Below, one piece after another: positions 14,555 through 25,677 of a DNA stretch of 64,000 nucleotides (position 1 is the first letter of the stretch; every line of letters starts with the position of its first letter). Position numbers and translations under genes: made by a program. The stretch is from positions 15,315 to 79,314 of the forward strand of contig JAZSRN010000053.1 of the NCBI GenBank assembly GCA_045538535.1. Direction: 5' to 3'. This DNA comes from Candidatus Gastranaerophilaceae bacterium (GTDB lineage Bacteria; Cyanobacteriota; Vampirovibrionia; Gastranaerophilales; Gastranaerophilaceae). Below the pieces are notes generated by a model, which ran no database searches, was not told the DNA's origin, and was given only the letters and a program-made list of their open reading frames with translations.

Positions 14555-14619
14555 AAGAAGTGAGCCGAAATAAAGTTAGAAGAAACAAGTTTTGGTAAAC
14601 GAACCAGAAAAGAACTCGT

Positions 14620-14692
14620 GGGGGTTTAGCTCAGCTGGTAGAGCACCTGCTTTGCACGCAGGGGGTCAGGAGTTCGAATCTCCTAACCTCCA
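14620..14692 (+). tRNA. tRNA-Ala (anticodon UGC), CCA not encoded
   Basis: Cloverleaf folded by hand. Acceptor GGGGGTT/AACCTCC carries the G3:U70 alanine identity pair. D arm GCTC..GAGC, anticodon loop TTTGCAC, T arm AGGAG-TTCGAAT-CTCCT. Confidence 0.93.
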
Positions 14693-14699
14693 AAATTTA

Positions 14700-15128: not shown

Positions 15129-15160
15129 AAAACCGAATGACATCTGTTATTCGGTTTTTT
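15129..15160 (+). terminator. Rho-independent terminator
   Basis: AAAACCGAAT-loop-ATTCGGTTTTTT. Confidence 0.7.
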
Positions 15161-15161
15161 A

Positions 15162-15398
15162 TTTTTCGTCATTGCGAGAGCGAAAGCCCGAAGCAATCTA
15201 GCCTTTGTCGATTTTAATTGGTCGGAAGTTTGCATTTTCAAACTAGACGAAAACGGTCTTTTCTTGCACTTTTTTGCACACTTTTGCATTAACCTTGCAC
15301 AAAATTGCACCAATTTTGCATACTTTTGCATTCTCTAGTAGGGTTGACTTCAACCAAACACTATTCTTTTTCGGTAGACTGAAGTCTACCCTACTTGC
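15162..15398. repeat. Composite ~235-bp repeat, copy A (GC-rich hairpin + GGTCGGAAGT..GACGAAAACGGTCTTTT core + phased TTGCA array + terminal stem-loop)
   Basis: Aligns end to end with 16424-16655 in direct orientation. Ends in a 16-bp imperfect inverted repeat, AGTAGGGTTGACTTCA (15337-15352) and TGAAGTCTACCCTACT (15380-15395). Confidence 0.85.
15264..15331. repeat. Array of seven TTGCA(C/T) motifs phased at 10-11 bp, copy A
   Basis: Motif starts at 15264, 15274, 15284, 15295, 15305, 15316 and 15326. T/A tracts between motifs share the same phase. Confidence 0.85.
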
Positions 15399-15440
15399 TA
15401 CTGGCTGATAAAGTGGTCATTTTTTTTAGCATTTTGAATT

Positions 15441-16280: not shown

Positions 16281-16423
16281 ATAAATTCCTTTCTTATCTT
16301 TAATACTTTGATTGCAACAAAATTAAAACCTGTAAAAAAAAAATTTGCTATTAATTCAAGAATGAGCTTGTAGAAAAATTTTCCTAAATAGTTCAAATTG
16401 ATTGTCAAAACATATAGAAAGTA

Positions 16424-16655
16424 TTTTTCGTCATTGCGAGGGCAAAAGCCCGAAGCAATCTAGTTCTTACCAACTTTAAACGGCCGGAAATTTACCAATC
16501 CAAACTGGACGAAAACGGTCTTTTCTTGCACTTTTTTTCACTTTTTTTCACACTTTTGCACTAACCTTGCACAAAATTGCACTGTTTTTGCACTTAAAAA
16601 ATTGTTGGGTTTTACCCAACCTACCCACTATTTTTTCGGTAGACTGAAGTTTCCC
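16424..16655. repeat. Composite ~235-bp repeat, copy B
   Basis: Direct repeat of 15162-15398. Its right end supplies the last codons and stop of ORF 16628-17071 and a hairpin, GTTGGGT-ttt-ACCCAAC. Confidence 0.85.
16526..16593. repeat. Array of seven TTGCAC/TTTCAC motifs phased at 10-11 bp, copy B
   Basis: Motif starts at 16526, 16536, 16546, 16556, 16567, 16577 and 16588. Confidence 0.85.
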
Positions 16656-17071
16656 ATACATGCTTTTATAGATTCAAAGAATTCTTCATCAGACATCGGC
16701 TTAAATCTAGACTTAATAACTCCAGTACTTTCATTCAATGTAATTGATTTATTAGGAACAAAACCATTCATTAATACAATTTCAGATTTTGCTTTAATAG
16801 GTTGTTCAAATTTAGGGAGGGCTTCAGCTATTGTAGATAATCCACCATATTTAAAAGGATTGGTAAACATATTCAAGAAACAAGTTTTTTTACCTTTATA
16901 TTTTGCACCCATTGAAAGCATTACACTATCTTGTGTTAAAGCTGTATTTGGTAAAGTTTTATTTACTAATGTTGTAGCTTGTAGCAATTCCCTTATTCCA
17001 TTTTTTGTTGGGGTATTGGTTACTAAATTACGGCATTGAACTTTTGACACACAATCTACAAAATTTACCAT
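16628..17071 (-). CDS. Hypothetical protein (147 aa)
   Basis: Strong RBS AAGGAG 7 nt upstream of the ATG. Preferred over the overlapping plus-strand ORF 16602-17039, which starts inside the repeat. Confidence 0.5.
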   Translation of the reverse strand: MVNFVDCVSKVQCRNLVTNTPTKNGIRELLQATTLVNKTLPNTALTQDSVMLSMGAKYKGKKTCFLNMFTNPFKYGGLSTIAEALPKFEQPIKAKSEIVLMNGFVPNKSITLNESTGVIKSRFKPMSDEEFFESIKACMGNFSLPKK

Positions 17072-17217
17072 TTTAAAACTCCTTTATAATTATTTAACTA
17101 CACCTAAAAACATTAACGTCAATGAATATTTAAAATTGACTAAATATTACAAAATCCTTTCTATATACTTTTTTATATTTATCATAAACCTTCTAAAAAT
17201 ATTTTTTGCTAGTTAAC

Positions 17218-17276
17218 ATAAAAATTATCAAACCAACTGTTCTTTTTTCTCAAACCTAGTGTCAAAATACAATTGT
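17218..17276 (-). promoter_or_regulatory. Shared promoter box U, copy 1 (gene strand TTGACA..TTGAGA-N18-GATAAT)
   Basis: About 47 of 58 positions are identical to 18372-18429 by hand alignment. GATAAT lies at 17224-17229 on the minus strand. Confidence 0.5.
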
Positions 17277-17280
17277 CCAG

Positions 17281-17530
17281 TTTGGTCGGAAGTAAAAAGT
17301 AAAACTGTCATGCTGAACTTGTTTCAGCATCTTGCCACTTAGGCGTGTTCACTACATTCTGGTGAGACCCTGAAATGAATTCAGACTGACAAAATGGTCG
17401 GAAGTCTATAAATCCAAGCTGGACCAAAACGGACTTTTGATGGACTTTGTTTTTCCATTTTTATACACCCTCACCCGAGCTTTGGGCACCCTCTCCTACA
17501 AGGGGCGAGGGTAATAAAAGTCCTATTTGA
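17281..17530. repeat. Mosaic of GC-rich hairpin modules, block C
   Basis: GGTCGGAAGT occurs at 17284 and 17396. The core CTGGACCAAAACGGACTTTT (17419-17438) is shared with blocks A and B. Hairpins are ATGCTGAA/TTCAGCAT (17310-17330) and ACCCTC/GAGGGT (17488-17512). Confidence 0.75.
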
Positions 17531-17559
17531 GAATTTTGAAGGAGTAAATAAAGTCGGGT

Positions 17560-18312
17560 TTAACCTTTTCTTATTTTTTCCATTTTTTCAATCAAGGTTC
17601 TTTCAATAATTTCATACTTTTCTTCAAAAGCACATTTTTTATTAATATTCACTTTAGAACCATATTTCATAGATTCATTGAACGCTAATGCTTCGTTAAT
17701 AATGGCATATCTAAAAAACTGCAAGGCATTTACTTGTTTTTCTTCCGGCATTGTTGCTAAAAACTTATTCAAACGATTTTCAAACCTTTTTTGCCAATTA
17801 AAAAGTTTATCTAATATTGAAATGCTACTATAAATATTTTTTTCAAAAAAGTTCGCAATAGGCTTATTAATAGAATTTACTCTTGCATTTATTTTTGGAT
17901 TTAAAAGACTTACAAATAAATGAAAAGTTTCATGCATAAGGAATTCACTATCGTATTTCTTAATTTTGTATTTATGATAACTTGTTGCACCGTCTTTGCT
18001 AGCTTTTACACCAAGATATAAATTATTTTTAAATCTATGAAAATAACCAAGTGTTTGTGAAGTCCACATATTAACAGGACGAACATCTAATTTAAAATTT
18101 TTTGGTATAAAGTTTTTTGAAAGAACGTATTTCATTTCCTCTATTGTCATAAACCCTTTTTTCATTTTTTCATTTGCTAATTGATAAAATTCAGCATTAA
18201 GTTCTTGGGCTTTTACAAGTCCAGATGTAACAGGGCCTTTAGGACCTACTATATTACGAACAATTTGAGATTTATTGGGGATAGTTTTTATCATGCTAAA
18301 CCTAAAACTCAT
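17560..18312 (-). CDS. Hypothetical protein (250 aa) with HExxH motif
   Basis: FLMHETFHLFV is a zincin-like HExxH. No signal peptide. The start codon is uncertain because no clear RBS is present. Confidence 0.45.
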   Translation of the reverse strand: MSFRFSMIKTIPNKSQIVRNIVGPKGPVTSGLVKAQELNAEFYQLANEKMKKGFMTIEEMKYVLSKNFIPKNFKLDVRPVNMWTSQTLGYFHRFKNNLYLGVKASKDGATSYHKYKIKKYDSEFLMHETFHLFVSLLNPKINARVNSINKPIANFFEKNIYSSISILDKLFNWQKRFENRLNKFLATMPEEKQVNALQFFRYAIINEALAFNESMKYGSKVNINKKCAFEEKYEIIERTLIEKMEKIRKG

Positions 18313-18371
18313 AAATTTTAAATTTTGACTAAATATTTACGATATTAAGTTTGTAAGTTGATTGAAACGCA

Positions 18372-18429
18372 ACAAAAATTATCAAGCTCACTGTTCTTTC
18401 TTCTCGAATCAAGTGTCAAAACACAGTGT
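18372..18429 (-). promoter_or_regulatory. Shared promoter box U, copy 2
   Basis: Aligned to 17218-17276. GATAAT lies at 18378-18383 on the minus strand. Confidence 0.5.
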
Positions 18430-18522
18430 ATCAGAAATTTTGACATAAAGTATCGCAAGTTTGACATATTAATCGGAAGTTTGTCGAATGTATTTTATAA
18501 TCCGGTATTTTAAAATCCTTAA

Positions 18523-18867
18523 ATGCAAAGAATTGTACGAAATACCTTGTTAAATTACATACCTAACAATTTCACTATAGAAAAAGAGATTAACACAGCA
18601 AGAGTTTATGAGCTTAATAATAAACCTATCAAAAATCACGATATAATTTACTTATGCGAAAGAGAAATTAGAGCAAAGGACAATTTTGCCCTACAATTTG
18701 CGATAGAAAAAAGCAAGGAGTCTGTAGGTTGGGTGAAACCCAACAAAATTTATCTACAAGTTGTCCAAAGAGATTATTTCGTTTTTTCTTCTAATTTATT
18801 TTTCATTTTTGCCGCCAAAGGAGTTGATACGGCAGGAGCTATTACTCGTTTTGCAATTATTGATTGA
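18523..18867 (+). pseudogene. Truncated duplicate of the photolyase 5' end (66 codons), then read-through into unrelated sequence
   Basis: 18511-18720 matches 20661-20870 with 7 mismatches. Homology stops abruptly at 18720. The remaining frame is antisense to ORF 18774-19430. Confidence 0.8.
18724..18746. repeat. Hairpin element GTAGGTTGGGTGAAACCCAACAA, an inverted copy of 16602-16624
   Basis: Its reverse complement matches 16602-16624 at 22 of 23 positions. It starts 3 nt after the photolyase-duplication breakpoint. Confidence 0.8.
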
Positions 18868-19430
18868 AGTACAATTGCTGTAAATGTACTAAGGCCATTT
18901 ATTACCATATTATAACGAGGCGTTTTTTCTAGAGGTTTTAATATTTTTTCAAATCCTTTTGTAATCTTATTCACAGACATAGGGCCTAATATAAAAGATA
19001 AAACTACCGTTGTTAGACATGCCATAACATCATATGAGCCCATAAATAATCGCTTTTCACGTGAATAATCAGGATTAGTAAAGGATTGAGATGTACTTAC
19101 AATCCCCGTCATTAAATCTTTCAATATATTACCAATAAGCACTGCATTAATTATCGTTTTTCCTAAATCGTTTGTTTTATGACCACCGACTTTGTTAAAT
19201 AATTTTGCAAATTTTTCAAAAATTTTTGTTATAATTTCATCTGTTTTTTTATGGAATTTGCTTGTTGATAGTTTTTTATCAAGCTCATTTTGAGCAAGCG
19301 TACATGTTTGTGCCGCTAATTCTTTTATTTGTTTGTAGTCTTCTAGAGAAGGTGTTTTACCTAAGCGATTTATCATTCTATTGACATTTTTTAATGATTC
19401 ATAAGAATTTATTGGAGGTATTTTATTCAT
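18774..19430 (-). CDS. Hypothetical membrane protein (218 aa)
   Basis: RBS GGAGGG. Hydrophobic segments in the C-terminal half. Overlaps the upstream ORF by 8 nt. Confidence 0.5.
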   Translation of the reverse strand: MNKIPPINSYESLKNVNRMINRLGKTPSLEDYKQIKELAAQTCTLAQNELDKKLSTSKFHKKTDEIITKIFEKFAKLFNKVGGHKTNDLGKTIINAVLIGNILKDLMTGIVSTSQSFTNPDYSREKRLFMGSYDVMACLTTVVLSFILGPMSVNKITKGFEKILKPLEKTPRYNMVINGLSTFTAIVLQSIIAKRVIAPAVSTPLAAKMKNKLEEKTK

Positions 19431-20526
19431 TTTTACCCTCCGTATTTTTGTTTAAATTTAACAATTTTACAGCTTTACCATGAATTACATTCAGAAATAT
19501 TCTGCTAAGAATAACTACCGTAACAATATTCATTGCTATTTTAGGTTTTATTTTCGCAAGTTCATAGTTCCCTACAGCATCTGCAATAATCTTAAATTTT
19601 TTTCTAACATAGTCTATATTTTCCGGTTTTATAATTCCTTGCTTAATTTGTCTTTCAAAATTCCGAACATAGCTTTCATAGGTTTCAGGTTCAAAAGCAT
19701 CGATAGTTATTAATTTGCGAGCATCATTTTCTGAAAGTATATCTTTTAACCCGCCTTTTTCTTGTGCCATATTCGTTAATTCGATAAATAATCGCTTCGC
19801 TTCATTAGGGTTATATTTAATATTTTCAAATTGATTTACCAAAATCTTTCCATGCTCTTTAATTTGCTCTCTAATTTCTTTTGTTTCAAATATATTATTT
19901 GAAAGAATCTTCGGCATATATACATTAAAAAGCTTATCAAAAGCTCCTTGTAAAGTAAAAGTAGCAAGAACCGACAACGGTTCTCTTATTATTACGTATG
20001 CTTTTTCATCCTTAGAGGATTCTTTTTTCCCTATAATGCTTGTTAATATTACAAGAGGCATAATAAAAAGTTTTCCGACAGAATTGATAAGGTTATTATA
20101 AAGTTCATCTCCCATTTTGGCTTTTGAATTTTGAAAACTCTGTCCAAGATTATATAACGTTTTGGTAAAAAATTTCTTAATTTTTCCTTGAGATTCAAGG
20201 AGTTTATCTATATTAGTTTCATCTTTAATCTTTTGGATATTTTCCAACTTTGAATACTGTTTTTCAATCCGTTTTGCTTTATTATAAATATATTCAGGAC
20301 TATGTGTTCTTAATATTCCAGTTTTATACGCAGCAAAACCAACGGCTGTCAACCATAACGATGTAGCCGTCACATCCGCAATTTTTTTTACATTATTATG
20401 TCCAGATTTTTGGTATTTGATTTCGTTTTTAGGTTCAATAAACCAATCGCGATGTTCAATATGTTTAACTAAACTTATATCATACATATACATAACAACG
20501 TTCATAAAAATAAATTTTGCTACCAA
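19423..20526 (-). CDS. Hypothetical membrane protein (up to 367 aa, start uncertain)
   Basis: Long K/I/N-rich ORF with TM segments near both ends. The TTG start at 20526 sits 2 nt from a TATATA box, so a downstream ATG (for example 20505) is more likely. Confidence 0.45.
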   Translation of the reverse strand: MVAKFIFMNVVMYMYDISLVKHIEHRDWFIEPKNEIKYQKSGHNNVKKIADVTATSLWLTAVGFAAYKTGILRTHSPEYIYNKAKRIEKQYSKLENIQKIKDETNIDKLLESQGKIKKFFTKTLYNLGQSFQNSKAKMGDELYNNLINSVGKLFIMPLVILTSIIGKKESSKDEKAYVIIREPLSVLATFTLQGAFDKLFNVYMPKILSNNIFETKEIREQIKEHGKILVNQFENIKYNPNEAKRLFIELTNMAQEKGGLKDILSENDARKLITIDAFEPETYESYVRNFERQIKQGIIKPENIDYVRKKFKIIADAVGNYELAKIKPKIAMNIVTVVILSRIFLNVIHGKAVKLLNLNKNTEGKNE

Positions 20527-20672
20527 CTATATAAAGTTAAACAAATTTATACGAGCATTTTTGCAACCGACACACTACAATACAGATAAAAAACTCAACA
20601 ATCTAACACTTTGACCTAAACATTAGATATTTAGTGAATATGTTTTTTTATTCTGCATTTTATAATCCTTAA

Positions 20673-21950
20673 ATGCAAAGAATTGTACGAAACACCTTAT
20701 TAAATTACATACCTAACAATTTCACTATAGAAAAAGAGATTAACACAGCAAGAGTTTATGAGTTTAACAATAAACCTATCAAAAATCACGATATAATTTA
20801 CTTATGCGAAAGAGAAATTAGAGCAAAGGACAATTTCGCACTACAATTTGCGATAGAAAAAAGCAAGGAGTTAGACTTGCCATTAAAAATAATTCATCCA
20901 AAGATTAATTATGAACACGCATCAAAACAAAGATTTATTGACAATCAAATAGAACAAGCAAAAACTCAATTTTGGGATATAGGTTTAGATTTTGAAATAA
21001 TCAAAAATACATCGCTTGAAATAATAAAAAATACAAATCCGGCTATTTTAATTGTTGATTTTAATCCGATTTTAAAAAGAGATTACTTAAAAAACACTAA
21101 TTGCAAGATTTATGAGATTGATGGCCATAATATAATTCCTACAAGATTTGTTTCAGACAAACAAGAATATAGCGCAGCGACTCTAAGAACAAAAATTTAT
21201 CATAAAATATATCCATTCTTAACCGAGTTTGACAATTTAATAACAGAAAAAGTAGAAGCAGATTGTGTTTTAGAAACTTTCATTAAAAACAAATTACCGT
21301 ATTATGCAGAATATAAAAATGACCCGTCAAAAAATGTTATATCAAGTTTATCAAAATATTTAAATCTAGGTTTTATTTCAAGTCAAAGAGTTGCACTTGA
21401 AGTTATAAAATCCGGAGCAAATAATATAAATAAAGAAACATTTTTAGAAGAATTAATTATTAGAAAAGAATTGGCAGATAATTTTTGCCTATATTCAAAA
21501 AGTTTTAAAGATTTTTCTTCAATTCCAAACTGGGCAAAAATCTCTCTTAATAATCACCGATTAGATATTCGCCCGTACCTATATTTACTCCAAGATTTAG
21601 AAAAGGCAAAAACACATGACCAATTATGGAATGCTGCGCAAATCCAATTGATAAAAGAAGGAACAATTCACGGATATTTAAGAATGTACTGGGCAAAGAA
21701 AATCTTGGAATGGAGCAGTTCACCAGAAGACGCTCTAAAAATAGCGATTTACTTAAATGATAAATATGCTTATGATGCACCATCTGCGAATGGTTATGTC
21801 GGAGTTTTATGGGCAATTGGAGGTTTACACGATAGAGCATTTGCGGATTATCCAATAACTGGCAAAATACGCCGAATGAGTTATAACTCTACAAAAAGAA
21901 AATATGATTTGTCCACTTATATAAACCACAACAATCGCAATTTATTTTAA
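20673..21950 (+). CDS. phr: Deoxyribodipyrimidine photolyase, class II-like
   Basis: C-terminal FAD-binding pattern IHGYLRMYWAKKILEW ... NGYVGVLWAIGGLHDRAF in a 425-aa protein. Confidence 0.8.
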   Translation: MQRIVRNTLLNYIPNNFTIEKEINTARVYEFNNKPIKNHDIIYLCEREIRAKDNFALQFAIEKSKELDLPLKIIHPKINYEHASKQRFIDNQIEQAKTQFWDIGLDFEIIKNTSLEIIKNTNPAILIVDFNPILKRDYLKNTNCKIYEIDGHNIIPTRFVSDKQEYSAATLRTKIYHKIYPFLTEFDNLITEKVEADCVLETFIKNKLPYYAEYKNDPSKNVISSLSKYLNLGFISSQRVALEVIKSGANNINKETFLEELIIRKELADNFCLYSKSFKDFSSIPNWAKISLNNHRLDIRPYLYLLQDLEKAKTHDQLWNAAQIQLIKEGTIHGYLRMYWAKKILEWSSSPEDALKIAIYLNDKYAYDAPSANGYVGVLWAIGGLHDRAFADYPITGKIRRMSYNSTKRKYDLSTYINHNNRNLF

Positions 21951-23625: not shown

Positions 23626-24993
23626 TTATACGTTATTACTGTACTTACTTAGAACTTCACACATACATTCGTGCGCAATTTTAACCACATAATCCATATC
23701 TTTACGTTCAAAAATCAATGGAGGATTAAAATAAATAACGTCACCAAGCGGCCTTAACAAAACGCCTTTAGTCAAGGCTAATTTATAAATTTGATAACCA
23801 ATGCGCAATTTTGAAGGAAAAGATTTTTTACTTTCTTTATCTTCAATAATTTCAATTGCATTTATCAATCCGATATTACGAACTTCTCCCACATTAGAAT
23901 TGTTTGCAAAAGTTTTTCTTATCAAATCATTAAAATAAATCGCATTTTCATTTGCTTGTTTTAGGATTTTACCATCTTCCATCATTTTAAGGACTTCAAC
24001 TGCTGCCGACGCTGCAAGAGGATTTCCGGCGTATGTATGACTATGCATAAATGCTTTACCTTTAACATAATCCGCATAAAAAGCGTCGTAAATTTTTTGC
24101 GTAGTAATCGTTATCGCCATTGGCATATAACCACCGGTCAACCCTTTTGATACACACATAATATTAGGGGAAACACCGGCATGGTCAAATGCAAACATTT
24201 TCCCTGTTCTGCCAAATCCCGTCGCAATTTCATCAGCAATTAAATGGACGTCGTATTTGTCGCAAAGCTGTCTCAATTTTGTTAAATACAAAGGCGGATA
24301 GACTTTCATACCTGCTGAACCTTGTAATAACGGTTCCACAAGGATTGCACAACAATCTTTTCCAAATTCCGCAAATACTTTTTCAGCATTTTCGAAACAT
24401 TCACATTTACAATCACATCGATCTTTATTGTATGGACATCTATAACAATCAGGCGCCGGCACCTTGACTGTATTGAGCAGAATGGGTTTATAAATCTCTG
24501 AATACAAATCAACCGCACCAACCGACAATGCTCCGATAGTTTCACCATGATAAGCATCCGTCAACGCCATGAATTTTGTTTTTTGTGTGTTACCAGTTTG
24601 TTGGTGATATTGGAAACTCATTTTCATAGCCATTTCAACCGATGAAGAACCATTGTCGGCAAAATTAAATTTACACAACCCTTTCGGAACAATTTTAGAT
24701 AATCTTTCACAAAGTTCTATCACCTTTTTATGTGTAAAATTTGCAAAAATAACATGTTCTAATTTGTCAATTTGTTCTTTTACAGCCTTATTTATTTGAG
24801 GATTACAATGCCCCAAAAGATTACACCACCAAGAACTGATGACATCTATATAACGATTACCATCAATATCGTACAAATAAACCCCTTCACCTCGCTCAAT
24901 AACAATCGGTGGCAAGGTCTCATAATCTTTCATTTGTGAGCACGGATGCCAAATATATTCTAAATCTTTTTCGACCCAATTCATATTTTCCAT
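23626..24993 (-). CDS. bioA: Adenosylmethionine-8-amino-7-oxononanoate aminotransferase
   Basis: Class III aminotransferase pattern (IADEIATGFGRTGKMFA, SHTYAGNPLA). Directly abuts bioD. Confidence 0.88.
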   Translation of the reverse strand: MENMNWVEKDLEYIWHPCSQMKDYETLPPIVIERGEGVYLYDIDGNRYIDVISSWWCNLLGHCNPQINKAVKEQIDKLEHVIFANFTHKKVIELCERLSKIVPKGLCKFNFADNGSSSVEMAMKMSFQYHQQTGNTQKTKFMALTDAYHGETIGALSVGAVDLYSEIYKPILLNTVKVPAPDCYRCPYNKDRCDCKCECFENAEKVFAEFGKDCCAILVEPLLQGSAGMKVYPPLYLTKLRQLCDKYDVHLIADEIATGFGRTGKMFAFDHAGVSPNIMCVSKGLTGGYMPMAITITTQKIYDAFYADYVKGKAFMHSHTYAGNPLAASAAVEVLKMMEDGKILKQANENAIYFNDLIRKTFANNSNVGEVRNIGLINAIEIIEDKESKKSFPSKLRIGYQIYKLALTKGVLLRPLGDVIYFNPPLIFERKDMDYVVKIAHECMCEVLSKYSNNV

Positions 24994-25677
24994 CTATAAC
25001 TCCTTAAAGATTGCAAGCAAAGCATCATTATCTATATTTATAACCGTTGAATTTTCCAAAACTTCAGCAAGAATTTTACACCCGGAAAGATTCGCTATTT
25101 GTAATTTATTATCTAATTCCATAAAATCAGAGGGATTATAATTATTTAAAATAAGACCTTCAATATGGATATTTTTATTCTTCAAATATTCAGTTGTCAA
25201 AACGGCTGAATTTATTGAGCCAAGCTTGGTGCCAGCAACCACGACGGCGCTAAGATTTAACGCTTTTATTACATCCGCAAGTAAAAGATTGTCTTCAATA
25301 TTAAATGGACAAACAACACCTCCAGCACCTTCAACTACTACATAATCATATTTTTTTGTGCGCACATTAAAATCCGAAACAATTTTTTCAAGTTTTATTG
25401 GATTTTTTTCAATCTTTGCCGCTAAATGTGGAGAAACAGCAGTTTCAAAAATGTACGACGCAAAGCTATTTGAATCTCCCTCAAGACCGGATACTAACTG
25501 AACATGTTCACAATCTCCGGCAACAAGTTTCCCATTTTTACGATAGGCACCACTCAAAGCCGGCTTATAATAACCGCAATTAAAACCTAATTCTCGCATT
25601 TTTTTTACAATAAGTGCGGATACATAAGTTTTACCTACATCGGTTCCAGTAGCTGTAATAAAAATACCTTTAGTCAT
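24994..25677 (-). CDS. bioD: Dethiobiotin synthase
   Basis: P-loop TATGTDVGKTYVS in a 227-aa protein, upstream of bioA. Confidence 0.88.
   Translation of the reverse strand: MTKGIFITATGTDVGKTYVSALIVKKMRELGFNCGYYKPALSGAYRKNGKLVAGDCEHVQLVSGLEGDSNSFASYIFETAVSPHLAAKIEKNPIKLEKIVSDFNVRTKKYDYVVVEGAGGVVCPFNIEDNLLLADVIKALNLSAVVVAGTKLGSINSAVLTTEYLKNKNIHIEGLILNNYNPSDFMELDNKLQIANLSGCKILAEVLENSTVINIDNDALLAIFKEL

Follow-up and report, generated by a model that had tools for sequence, protein, structure and literature searches.

The 210-nt repeat formed by the 5' end of a photolyase gene, phr, is most likely an ordinary recombination scar between strain variants and not a new kind of mobile element. It lies in a stretch of 64,000 nt that was analyzed as a whole (the window), where the left copy of the repeat is cut off after codon 66, the right copy is the start of an intact phr, and a two-gene membrane operon stands between them. 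We see about an even chance that this arrangement arose by one illegitimate join and one homologous exchange between two phr-upstream haplotypes, in the pattern known as homology-facilitated illegitimate recombination (HFIR). Two other strains serve for comparison, one represented by a contig of the same species from an independent Logan assembly (SRR24653778; L083) and the other a third strain (L091). The features discussed below are as follows, with positions in the window.

18374 to 18425, minus strand: D2, a shared motif of promoter type that precedes the 250-aa gene at 17560-18312; its right end is a breakpoint between strains.
18426 to 18462, no strand assigned: spacer specific to the window's genome, which separates D2 from the L-type phr promoter, with no counterpart in L091 or L083.
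18463 to 18510, plus strand: left phr upstream (promoter) region, L-type, aligned with 20613-20660 and closer to L002.
18511 to 18721, plus strand: left high-identity copy, truncated, with the leader of 12 nt and phr codons 1 to 66.
18523 to 18867, plus strand: chimeric 114-aa ORF, with 66 phr residues and then 48 across the hairpin, antisense to ORF218.
18719 to 18721, no strand assigned: illegitimate junction with AGT microhomology, from comparison of phr, L083, and the window.
18719 to 18751, no strand assigned: hairpin element H, AGTCTGTAG-GTTGGGT-GAA-ACCCAAC, a small clade-typical intergenic element, also found in a second copy and in relatives.
18774 to 19430, minus strand: ORF218, second gene of the operon, a predicted all-helical membrane protein (AlphaFold2 model).
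19423 to 20505, minus strand: ORF360, leading gene of the operon, with an 8-nt overlap with ORF218; its product is predicted to be a helical membrane protein.
20506 to 20612, no strand assigned: intergenic region between ORF360 and phr, common to L083.
20613 to 20660, plus strand: right phr upstream (promoter) region, R-type, across which L083 is collinear.
20661 to 20871, plus strand: right high-identity copy, forming the start of the intact phr, from alignment with the left copy.
20673 to 21950, plus strand: intact class II photolyase homologue of 425 aa, with matches to TIGR00591 and 2xry.

Pairwise alignment within the window found 18511-18720 and 20661-20870 identical at 203 of 210 positions without gaps, the mismatches lying at 18513, 18543, 18549, 18613, 18618, 18687, and 18690. 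Each copy comprises a 12-nt leader and 66 codons, with the ATG at 18523 in the left copy and at 20673 in the right, and exact blocks of 63 and 68 nt are common to both. A repeat of this length and make-up, with seven differences, had been described in an earlier sequence-only reading, as had the continuation of the right copy into a 425-aa gene (ORF 20673-21950), and both descriptions hold. That reading also placed the end of homology exactly at 18720; there is a break there, but identity extends 1 base beyond, to 18721/20871. Its claim that the sequences upstream of the two copies are unrelated does not stand. Positions -60 to -13 of both copies are identical at 30 of 48 sites (62%; shuffle P = 2e-5), and other Gastranaerophilales have a conserved region upstream of phr to which both versions align. 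With the corresponding region in L002, one of the related phr loci, the left version (18463-18510) shares 77% identity and the right version 65%. With homology reaching about 48 nt further upstream in both copies, the repeat unit is about 260 nt long and its divergence is a mosaic, 38% in the 48-nt promoter versus 3.3% from -12 to +198. Uniform decay after one duplication in place does not yield such a pattern.

The substitution patterns of the two copies, which the sequence-only reading had proposed to compare, add to this picture. Among the six coding differences, a single one changes the amino acid, giving the left copy Leu31, the commonest state in relatives; the other five are synonymous (P of about 0.008 for random placement, from a test on 6 sites only, which counts against the explanation that we prefer). 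The synonymous bias and the Leu31 state indicate that the differences arose in intact genes. Counted on the alignment, the left and right copies differ at 7 sites, the right copy and the L083 phr at 4, and the left copy and the L083 phr at 9, so that the left copy is an outgroup to the other two. The L083 alleles match the right copy at 6 of the 7 sites, along the whole length. Taken with the synonymous bias, this outgroup position suggests where the left copy came from: it looks like a piece of a different functional allele and not like an in-place copy that decayed.

By full-length similarity, the product of the intact gene is a member of the class II CPD photolyase superfamily. It gave E = 8e-96 against the class II CPD photolyase of Methanosarcina mazei (2xry), E of about 1e-96 against 2xry and 8oet, and E = 1e-112 against TIGR00591, with a score of 377.6 bits that falls short of the curated cut-off, 550. 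At E <= 1e-100 it has 953 relatives, the nearest other one being 82% identical. A scan of a genome collection with phr gave other species only, with at most 77% amino-acid identity and no shared neighbours. An exact-product look-up with the window's phr returned 0 identical records, and a degenerate pattern for the species-specific phr peptide NYIPNNFTIEKEIN had 0 matches in a JGI metagenome scan. The left fragment would no longer have a photolyase function. The chimeric 114-aa ORF that starts in it is probably not functional, and the exact-product look-up found no identical 114-aa product on record elsewhere.

Two reverse-strand ORFs had been placed between the copies. Both exist, but the second starts at 20505 and not at 20526; its homologues and a 360-aa NCBI protein record put the true start of ORF 19423-20526 at the ATG at 20505, which gives a product of 360 aa. 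ORF218 and ORF360 each have two to three hydrophobic, possibly membrane-spanning segments by sequence prediction. The ORF218 family has 99 representatives at E <= 1e-3, and ORF360 has 34 homologues of about 355 to 365 aa. An ORF360 homologue is paired with an ORF218 homologue in every sufficiently long locus, down to 35% identity. The AlphaFold2 model of ORF218 (pLDDT 90.9) had no PDB fold match, the best E being 1.0, the ORF360 model (pLDDT 64) had no fold match either, and PDB fold searches with both models gave nothing better than E = 0.4. The operon is a conserved one, and one of its products has a confidently predicted fold with no apparent counterpart among solved structures. Neither the two operon proteins nor the neighbouring unknown genes had a significant match in Pfam, NCBIfam, PHROG, or PADLOC, and look-ups with ORF367, ORF218, and the 250-aa gene returned no exact product. 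Paralogy among the cassette proteins was ruled out, the best pairwise E-value being 0.13.

The comparison with other strains delimits what is peculiar to the window. L083 is collinear with it over 18716-21071 at 98.5% identity, and the operon adjoins phr there in the same position, without the left phr fragment. The L083 contig, assembled from k-mers, extends just 125 nt beyond the hairpin on the left and could be chimeric at the repeat element there. Homology breaks in it at the same junction, and where the window has the phr fragment, L083 has about 95 nt of unrelated repeat-like sequence on that side of the hairpin; about 295 nt in the window replace these 95 nt, the window's own assembly being the one source for the left junction. 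In L091, 98.35% identity with the window is confined to 17516-18425, with other genes beyond. From the two comparisons, the segment of about 295 nt at 18426-18720 is specific to the window's genome. The 1.94-kb insert had been taken for newly inserted foreign DNA, a view that we abandon: L083 has the same operon beside phr without the left fragment, and the insert and phr are equal in G+C content (29.1% versus 29.0%), so that composition gives no signal of a foreign origin. The search for an empty site that had been suggested was run on the available sequence collections and found no single phr with left-type upstream sequence and no insert; the sole same-species contig across the region has the insert. 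Likewise, an L-type promoter on a complete phr, which would represent the second haplotype, was not observed in any collection searched.

At the junction, phr reads ...AAGGAGT/TAGAC, L083 reads ...TAGGAAGT/CTGTAGG, and the window reads ...AAGGAGT/CTGTAGG. The AGT at 18719-18721 is common to phr (AAGGAGT) and to the L083 sequence left of the hairpin (GGAAGT). Written out across 18720/18721, the window sequence is GCAAGGAGT/CTGTAGGTTGGG. Hairpin H has a second, inverted copy at 16597-16629, with only two copies in the 64 kb, and it is also found downstream of phr in L001, the closest species found, and after an unrelated gene in L084. On the left flank, the D2 motif is 85% identical to 17220-17271, upstream of a 147-aa gene, and is also present at the left end of L083. 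Further left, a tRNA-Ala gene at 14619-14693 was the only match in Rfam.

Several known classes of element were considered. Target duplications made by transposons range from a few bp to about 14 bp. The 210-nt repeat is far too long for one, as the sequence-only reading had argued, and this length, together with the lack of any transposase family match, rules out a transposon or IS insertion; no inverted repeat pairing the insert ends was listed in the repeat search. The attC sites of integrons are imperfect palindromes of about 60 to 140 nt with RYYYAAC...GTTRRRY ends, and an integron needs the IntI integrase. Hairpin H is ruled out as an attC site, having GTTGGGT and ACCCAAC in reverse order, 3 nt apart, and two copies in 64 kb, and no integrase match was found among the ORFs scanned between 7.7 and 31.5 kb. 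A tRNA-linked island was also ruled out, the 3' end of the tRNA-Ala being repeated nowhere in the window and no integrase having been found. Searches of Pfam, NCBIfam, PHROG, and PADLOC found no recombinase or replication gene in the insert or near it.

The explanation that we prefer would start from two haplotypes, both from this species or close relatives. The first, as in L083, would have the order hairpin H, ORF218, ORF360, R-type promoter, and phr, and the second, with a functional phr allele that had diverged slightly, would have supplied the L-type promoter and codons 1 to 66. The chromosome would be a recombinant of both, in which a single illegitimate join at the 3-nt AGT brought hairpin H, at its left edge, up against phr codon 66/67 and an ordinary homologous exchange of linear DNA took place in the shared flank. 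The direction could be either way, with the phr fragment coming in beside a resident operon or the operon and a new phr 5' end coming into a resident phr. The transfer route is one that we infer. HFIR has been described in Streptococcus pneumoniae, Acinetobacter baylyi, and Pseudomonas stutzeri, and its junctions typically have a microhomology of 3 to 10 bp, with insertion and deletion of similar size (PMC3240628). The window's junction is like these in being one new junction with a 3-nt microhomology, which falls within that range, beside sequence homologous between strains (the flanks of the segment are 98.35 to 98.5% identical to the other strains), with a few hundred nt gained, about 100 nt lost versus the other strain, and no recombinase gene. 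It differs in that HFIR is usually a simple insertion-deletion, whereas here the 5' end of the anchor-side gene is duplicated and the event is inferred from genome comparison. Indeed, HFIR usually yields a deletion and not a duplication (PMC3240628), and the net product here contains a duplication, which counts against our explanation, as does a literature search on natural transformation in this clade that gave nothing relevant. The failure to observe the second haplotype, a left junction known from one assembly, and the chance that L083 is itself chimeric weigh against it too. A further likeness is to the orphan fragments of T6SS effector-immunity, Rhs, and CDI systems (PMC5361080), where a truncated, allele-like piece likewise lies beside an intact gene, the module is joined by one homologous and one illegitimate exchange, and the copies are from different strains. 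Those systems have 3' fragments and immunity genes under toxin-immunity selection, whereas the window has a 5' fragment of a DNA-repair gene.

The sequence-only reading had offered Campbell-type integration or a recombination accident; recombination, and not transposition, did make the structure, but the Campbell form is not favoured. A circle with the hairpin, the operon, the R-type promoter, and phr 1-198 would have entered the resident phr 5' end by a single crossover and duplicated 210 nt. Direct repeats around an insert, 96.7% identical, the left truncated at codon 66 and the right intact, resemble the classical product, and single-crossover integration of circular molecules in E. coli did give duplications of 109 to 950 bp in selected recombinants (PMC3240628). 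Compared with those E. coli products, however, the window has no plasmid or phage backbone, no phase switch, and an insert that occurs without the duplication in another strain. The insert holds two uncharacterised membrane-protein genes only, with no replication, recombinase, or transfer gene, and the viral-contig scan found no relatives of ORF360. L083, with the operon beside phr and no left repeat, is neither the integrated nor the empty form, and its agreement with the right copy at 6 of 7 sites would confine the crossover to the extremes of the repeat, 30 nt at its end or 2 nt at its start; the allele-phase switch that a crossover within the repeat would produce is absent. The circle would also first need the same illegitimate phr-to-hairpin junction. 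In light of the L083 arrangement, the lack of a recombinase or replication gene, the equal G+C content, the missing phase switch, and the missing empty site, we regard Campbell integration as possible with a low probability. Also unlikely is an origin from two full tandem phr genes, one from a relative, with a deletion from codon 66 to the hairpin that removed most of the left one. The left copy does have its own native-type promoter and a mostly synonymous, allele-like divergence, L001 has the same hairpin about 130 nt past its phr stop codon, and the junction microhomology suits a deletion as well as a join. However, this history would require two events, an additive acquisition and then a deletion, and a second phr 5' end is absent from all 14 of the closest related phr loci tested (L001-L014). 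L083 would have to have lost the whole left gene independently, up to the very same edge of the hairpin, and the window's hairpin has the orientation opposite to that in L001.

Simple tandem duplication in place, from the hairpin to phr codon 66, after which the left operon was lost and the fragment decayed neutrally, would by sequence logic produce exactly the new junction between phr codon 66 and the hairpin. It is disfavoured, and very improbable in our judgment: about equal similarity would be expected throughout, yet the promoters are 62% identical and the coding parts 97%, the differences are biased to synonymous sites (P = 0.008), and the left copy is further from the right copy than another strain's phr is, while extra deletion and replacement steps would be needed. 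There is a small chance that the 18720/18721 join is an artefact of a sample with two strains, produced during metagenome assembly or by chimeric molecules in the library. The window comes from an uncultured gut bacterium, and the species is otherwise represented by contigs of separate samples or assemblies, which shows that strain variants exist; the sole independent contig across the region is without the junction, and the 114-aa product is not recorded identically elsewhere. However, the end of the phr fragment and the hairpin have only 3 nt in common, too few for a k-mer graph to join them. The copies were kept separate with 7 consistent differences and were not collapsed, and L083 independently confirms that operon and phr are neighbours, as well as the right-hand junction. 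A broader joint reading, which we hold to be a long shot, would make the 6 kb from tRNA-Ala to phr a hotspot of cassette swapping between strains and the captured phr promoter and 5' fragment not inert. The cassettes would be self-contained, each with its own promoter, and would be swapped at the D2 motif and hairpin H by a mechanism independent of any locally encoded recombinase; the left phr promoter would drive transcription antisense to the operon, putatively subjecting the operon to the control that acts on phr.

With recombination between strain variants as the preferred explanation, no new type of mobile element is revealed. The insert had been called excisable, and we agree that deletion between the copies is plausible because of the exact blocks that they have in common. 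RecA-type recombination between them could delete the operon and leave a hybrid phr under the L-type promoter, and a strain-variable site with a deletion-prone unit of 2.15 kb could confuse assembly and annotation. Scars of this kind would be separable from in-place duplications by their mosaic divergence and synonymous bias. The locus would offer a clean natural example, from uncultured gut Melainabacteria, of how illegitimate and homologous recombination together may reshuffle accessory genes and leave fragments behind.

The duplication of the photolyase gene (phr) 5' end claimed in the sequence-only reading is real: 18511-18720 and 20661-20870 align gap-free with seven mismatches (18513, 18543, 18549, 18613, 18618, 18687 and 18690), and each copy comprises 66 codons preceded by 12 nt of leader. 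The copies do part at 18720 as described, with identity reaching one base more, to 18721/20871. The features concerned are as follows.

14619-14693, tRNA-Ala
18511-18721, left high-identity copy, gap-free alignment with 20661-20871
18774-19430, reverse strand, ORF218, 218 aa
20661-20871, right high-identity copy, gap-free alignment with 18511-18721

The right copy runs on into the full phr, a 425-aa ORF (20673-21950), and the left copy reads into a chimeric ORF of 114 aa. The sequences further upstream had been called unrelated, which did not hold, as the adjoining 48 nt are homologous (30/48 identical; shuffle P=2e-5), which brings the duplicated unit to about 260 nt. Divergence between the copies is 38% in the promoter, jumping to 3.3% from -12 onward. 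Both upstream versions align to a motif conserved upstream of phr in other species, and the upstream region of one relative (L002) is closer to the left version (77% identity) than to the right (65%).

The 425-aa ORF is homologous to class II photolyases: it matches 2xry, the enzyme of Methanosarcina mazei (E=8e-96), and TIGR00591 (E=1e-112), the latter with 377.6 bits, short of the curated cut-off; Pfam PF00875 was matched only weakly. The nearest phr loci are from uncultured gut and rumen Melainabacteria (Gastranaerophilales), and phr neighbours are not conserved in those closest species. The best match was 77% identical in amino acid sequence in a collection of species-representative genomes and 82% in a large protein collection, the window's own protein aside. 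This homologue is kept across dark-living gut and rumen Gastranaerophilales (953 relatives at E<=1e-100), and its role may be something other than light-driven repair.

Comparison of substitution patterns in the two copies, which had been proposed as a check, showed that, of six differences in the coding part, five are synonymous (P=0.008 if sites were placed at random), in tests on the copies that are based on six or seven sites. The sole replacement leaves the left copy with Leu31, which is the residue seen most often among relatives. When phr of L083, an independent same-species Logan contig (SRR24653778), was added to the alignment, the left copy was the outgroup (by our count, left-right 7 differences, right-L083 4, left-L083 9). 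Together these features give the left fragment the look of a segment from a different functional allele, not of an in-place decayed copy of the neighboring phr.

Between the copies lie two ORFs, both on the reverse strand as first read, with an 8-nt overlap; the homologue-supported start of the longer is instead the ATG at 20505, giving 360 aa (ORF360). ORF360 and ORF218 each have two or three hydrophobic segments, and both genes occur in the same order in every related locus long enough, at 99% to ~35% identity. Members of the ORF218 family (99 cluster representatives) always occur with an ORF360 homologue. The surroundings vary between species, and homology is limited to the two coding regions, 18775-20523. 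Neither protein was named by any library. The AlphaFold2 model of ORF218 is confident (pLDDT 90.9) and all-helical with seven helices, that of ORF360 is weaker (pLDDT 64), and neither found a fold match in the PDB (best E=1.0 for ORF218). Together the two genes make up a conserved membrane operon whose function is unknown; its G+C content is 29.1%, equal to phr at 29.0%.

The operon had been taken as the inserted part, and same-species contigs argue otherwise. Between 18716 and 21071, L083 aligns collinearly with the window (98.5% identity), which confirms the intact 5' end of phr, the right-type promoter, the operon and the hairpin. Left of the hairpin, where this k-mer contig extends only 125 nt, it has ~95 nt of unrelated repeat-like sequence after the promoter-type motif D2, and the phr fragment is absent. 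A third strain, L091 (GCA_045531805.1), is 98.35% identical solely over 17516-18425, with other genes beyond. The genome-specific piece is therefore 18426-18715, not the operon. Neither an empty site nor a second haplotype was found in the sequence collections searched.

The window is ordinary chromosome with housekeeping genes on both sides; no ORF scanned from 7.7 to 31.5 kb matched integrase or transposase families, and no repeat of the tRNA-Ala 3' end was found in the window. The 147-aa and 250-aa genes share the conserved upstream motifs D4 and D2 (17122-17148 with 17220-17271; 18311-18337 with 18374-18425). Between-strain homology breaks at or within D2 in both L091 and L083, and the tRNA-Ala-to-phr region therefore behaves as a strain-variable, cassette-like site. 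Another contig from SRR24653778 (L082) is without ~1.74 kb (23919-25661), most of bioA and bioD, as if this strain had lost biotin synthesis genes by deletion. Relatives of the 250-aa gene (17560-18312) in other lineages (L100, L106, L107) adjoin a Mu-like prophage and a giant protein (2261-2552 aa); close by, a 182-aa tyrosine recombinase is encoded on one strand in L106 and on the other in L107, pointing to a possibly invertible segment.

The left copy is joined (slash) at AAGGAGT/CTGTAGG, where phr reads AAGGAGT/TAGAC and L083 reads GGAAGT/CTGTAGG, with 3 nt of microhomology (AGT, 18719-18721). The join falls on the left margin of a small hairpin, AGTCTGTAG-GTTGGGT-GAA-ACCCAAC (18719-18751), found also at 16597-16629, downstream of phr in the related locus L001 (3774-3841) and, in L084 (12997-13020), following an unrelated gene. 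With the consensus AGYYTGTAG-GTTGGGT-NNN-ACCCAAC, the element follows genes in several species of the clade and is without the T-run of a classical terminator. A ~240-nt intergenic repeat (15160-15400 and 16422-16664, 82-89% identical), downstream of two genes on the reverse strand whose function is unknown, contains the hairpin GTCATTGCGAG..GCCCGAAGCAATC and six or seven TTGCAC/TTGCAT motifs at ~10-11 nt spacing (15260-15330, 16522-16592), which look like iterons or a putative array of protein-binding sites.

Every viable model needs one illegitimate join, of phr codon 66/67 to the hairpin edge. The most economical full account, which we rate at about even probability, is recombination between two upstream haplotypes, in which a homologous exchange in a shared flank would be combined with a microhomology join linking codon 66/67 to the hairpin edge. 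Campbell-type integration of a circle, as proposed from the sequence alone, would give the same final map, and duplications of 109-950 bp made in this way are known from experiments (PMC3240628), but circular-element functions are absent, the L083 arrangement matches neither the integrated nor the empty form, and the repeat shows no switch of allele phase. The original observation stands and its interpretation has partial support; this route is unlikely, disfavored against haplotype recombination.

Equally improbable is a second full phr truncated afterwards by deletion, at which the hairpin downstream of phr in L001 hints. Tandem duplication with decay is rated lowest, as it conflicts with both the mosaic divergence and the bias towards synonymous changes. 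An assembly or library artefact is hardly more credible, since the junction offers an assembler no k-mer overlap to follow, although it is without independent confirmation. Stretches of 63 and 68 nt are identical in the two copies, which would make homologous deletion of the 2.15 kb unit plausible.

The two-haplotype account of the phr fragment fits the pattern of homology-facilitated illegitimate recombination, with microhomology of 3-10 bp and an insertion and deletion similar in size (PMC3240628), and related displacement scars have been described at T6SS, Rhs and CDI loci (PMC5361080). The feature is a known kind of recombination scar, in a poorly studied lineage.
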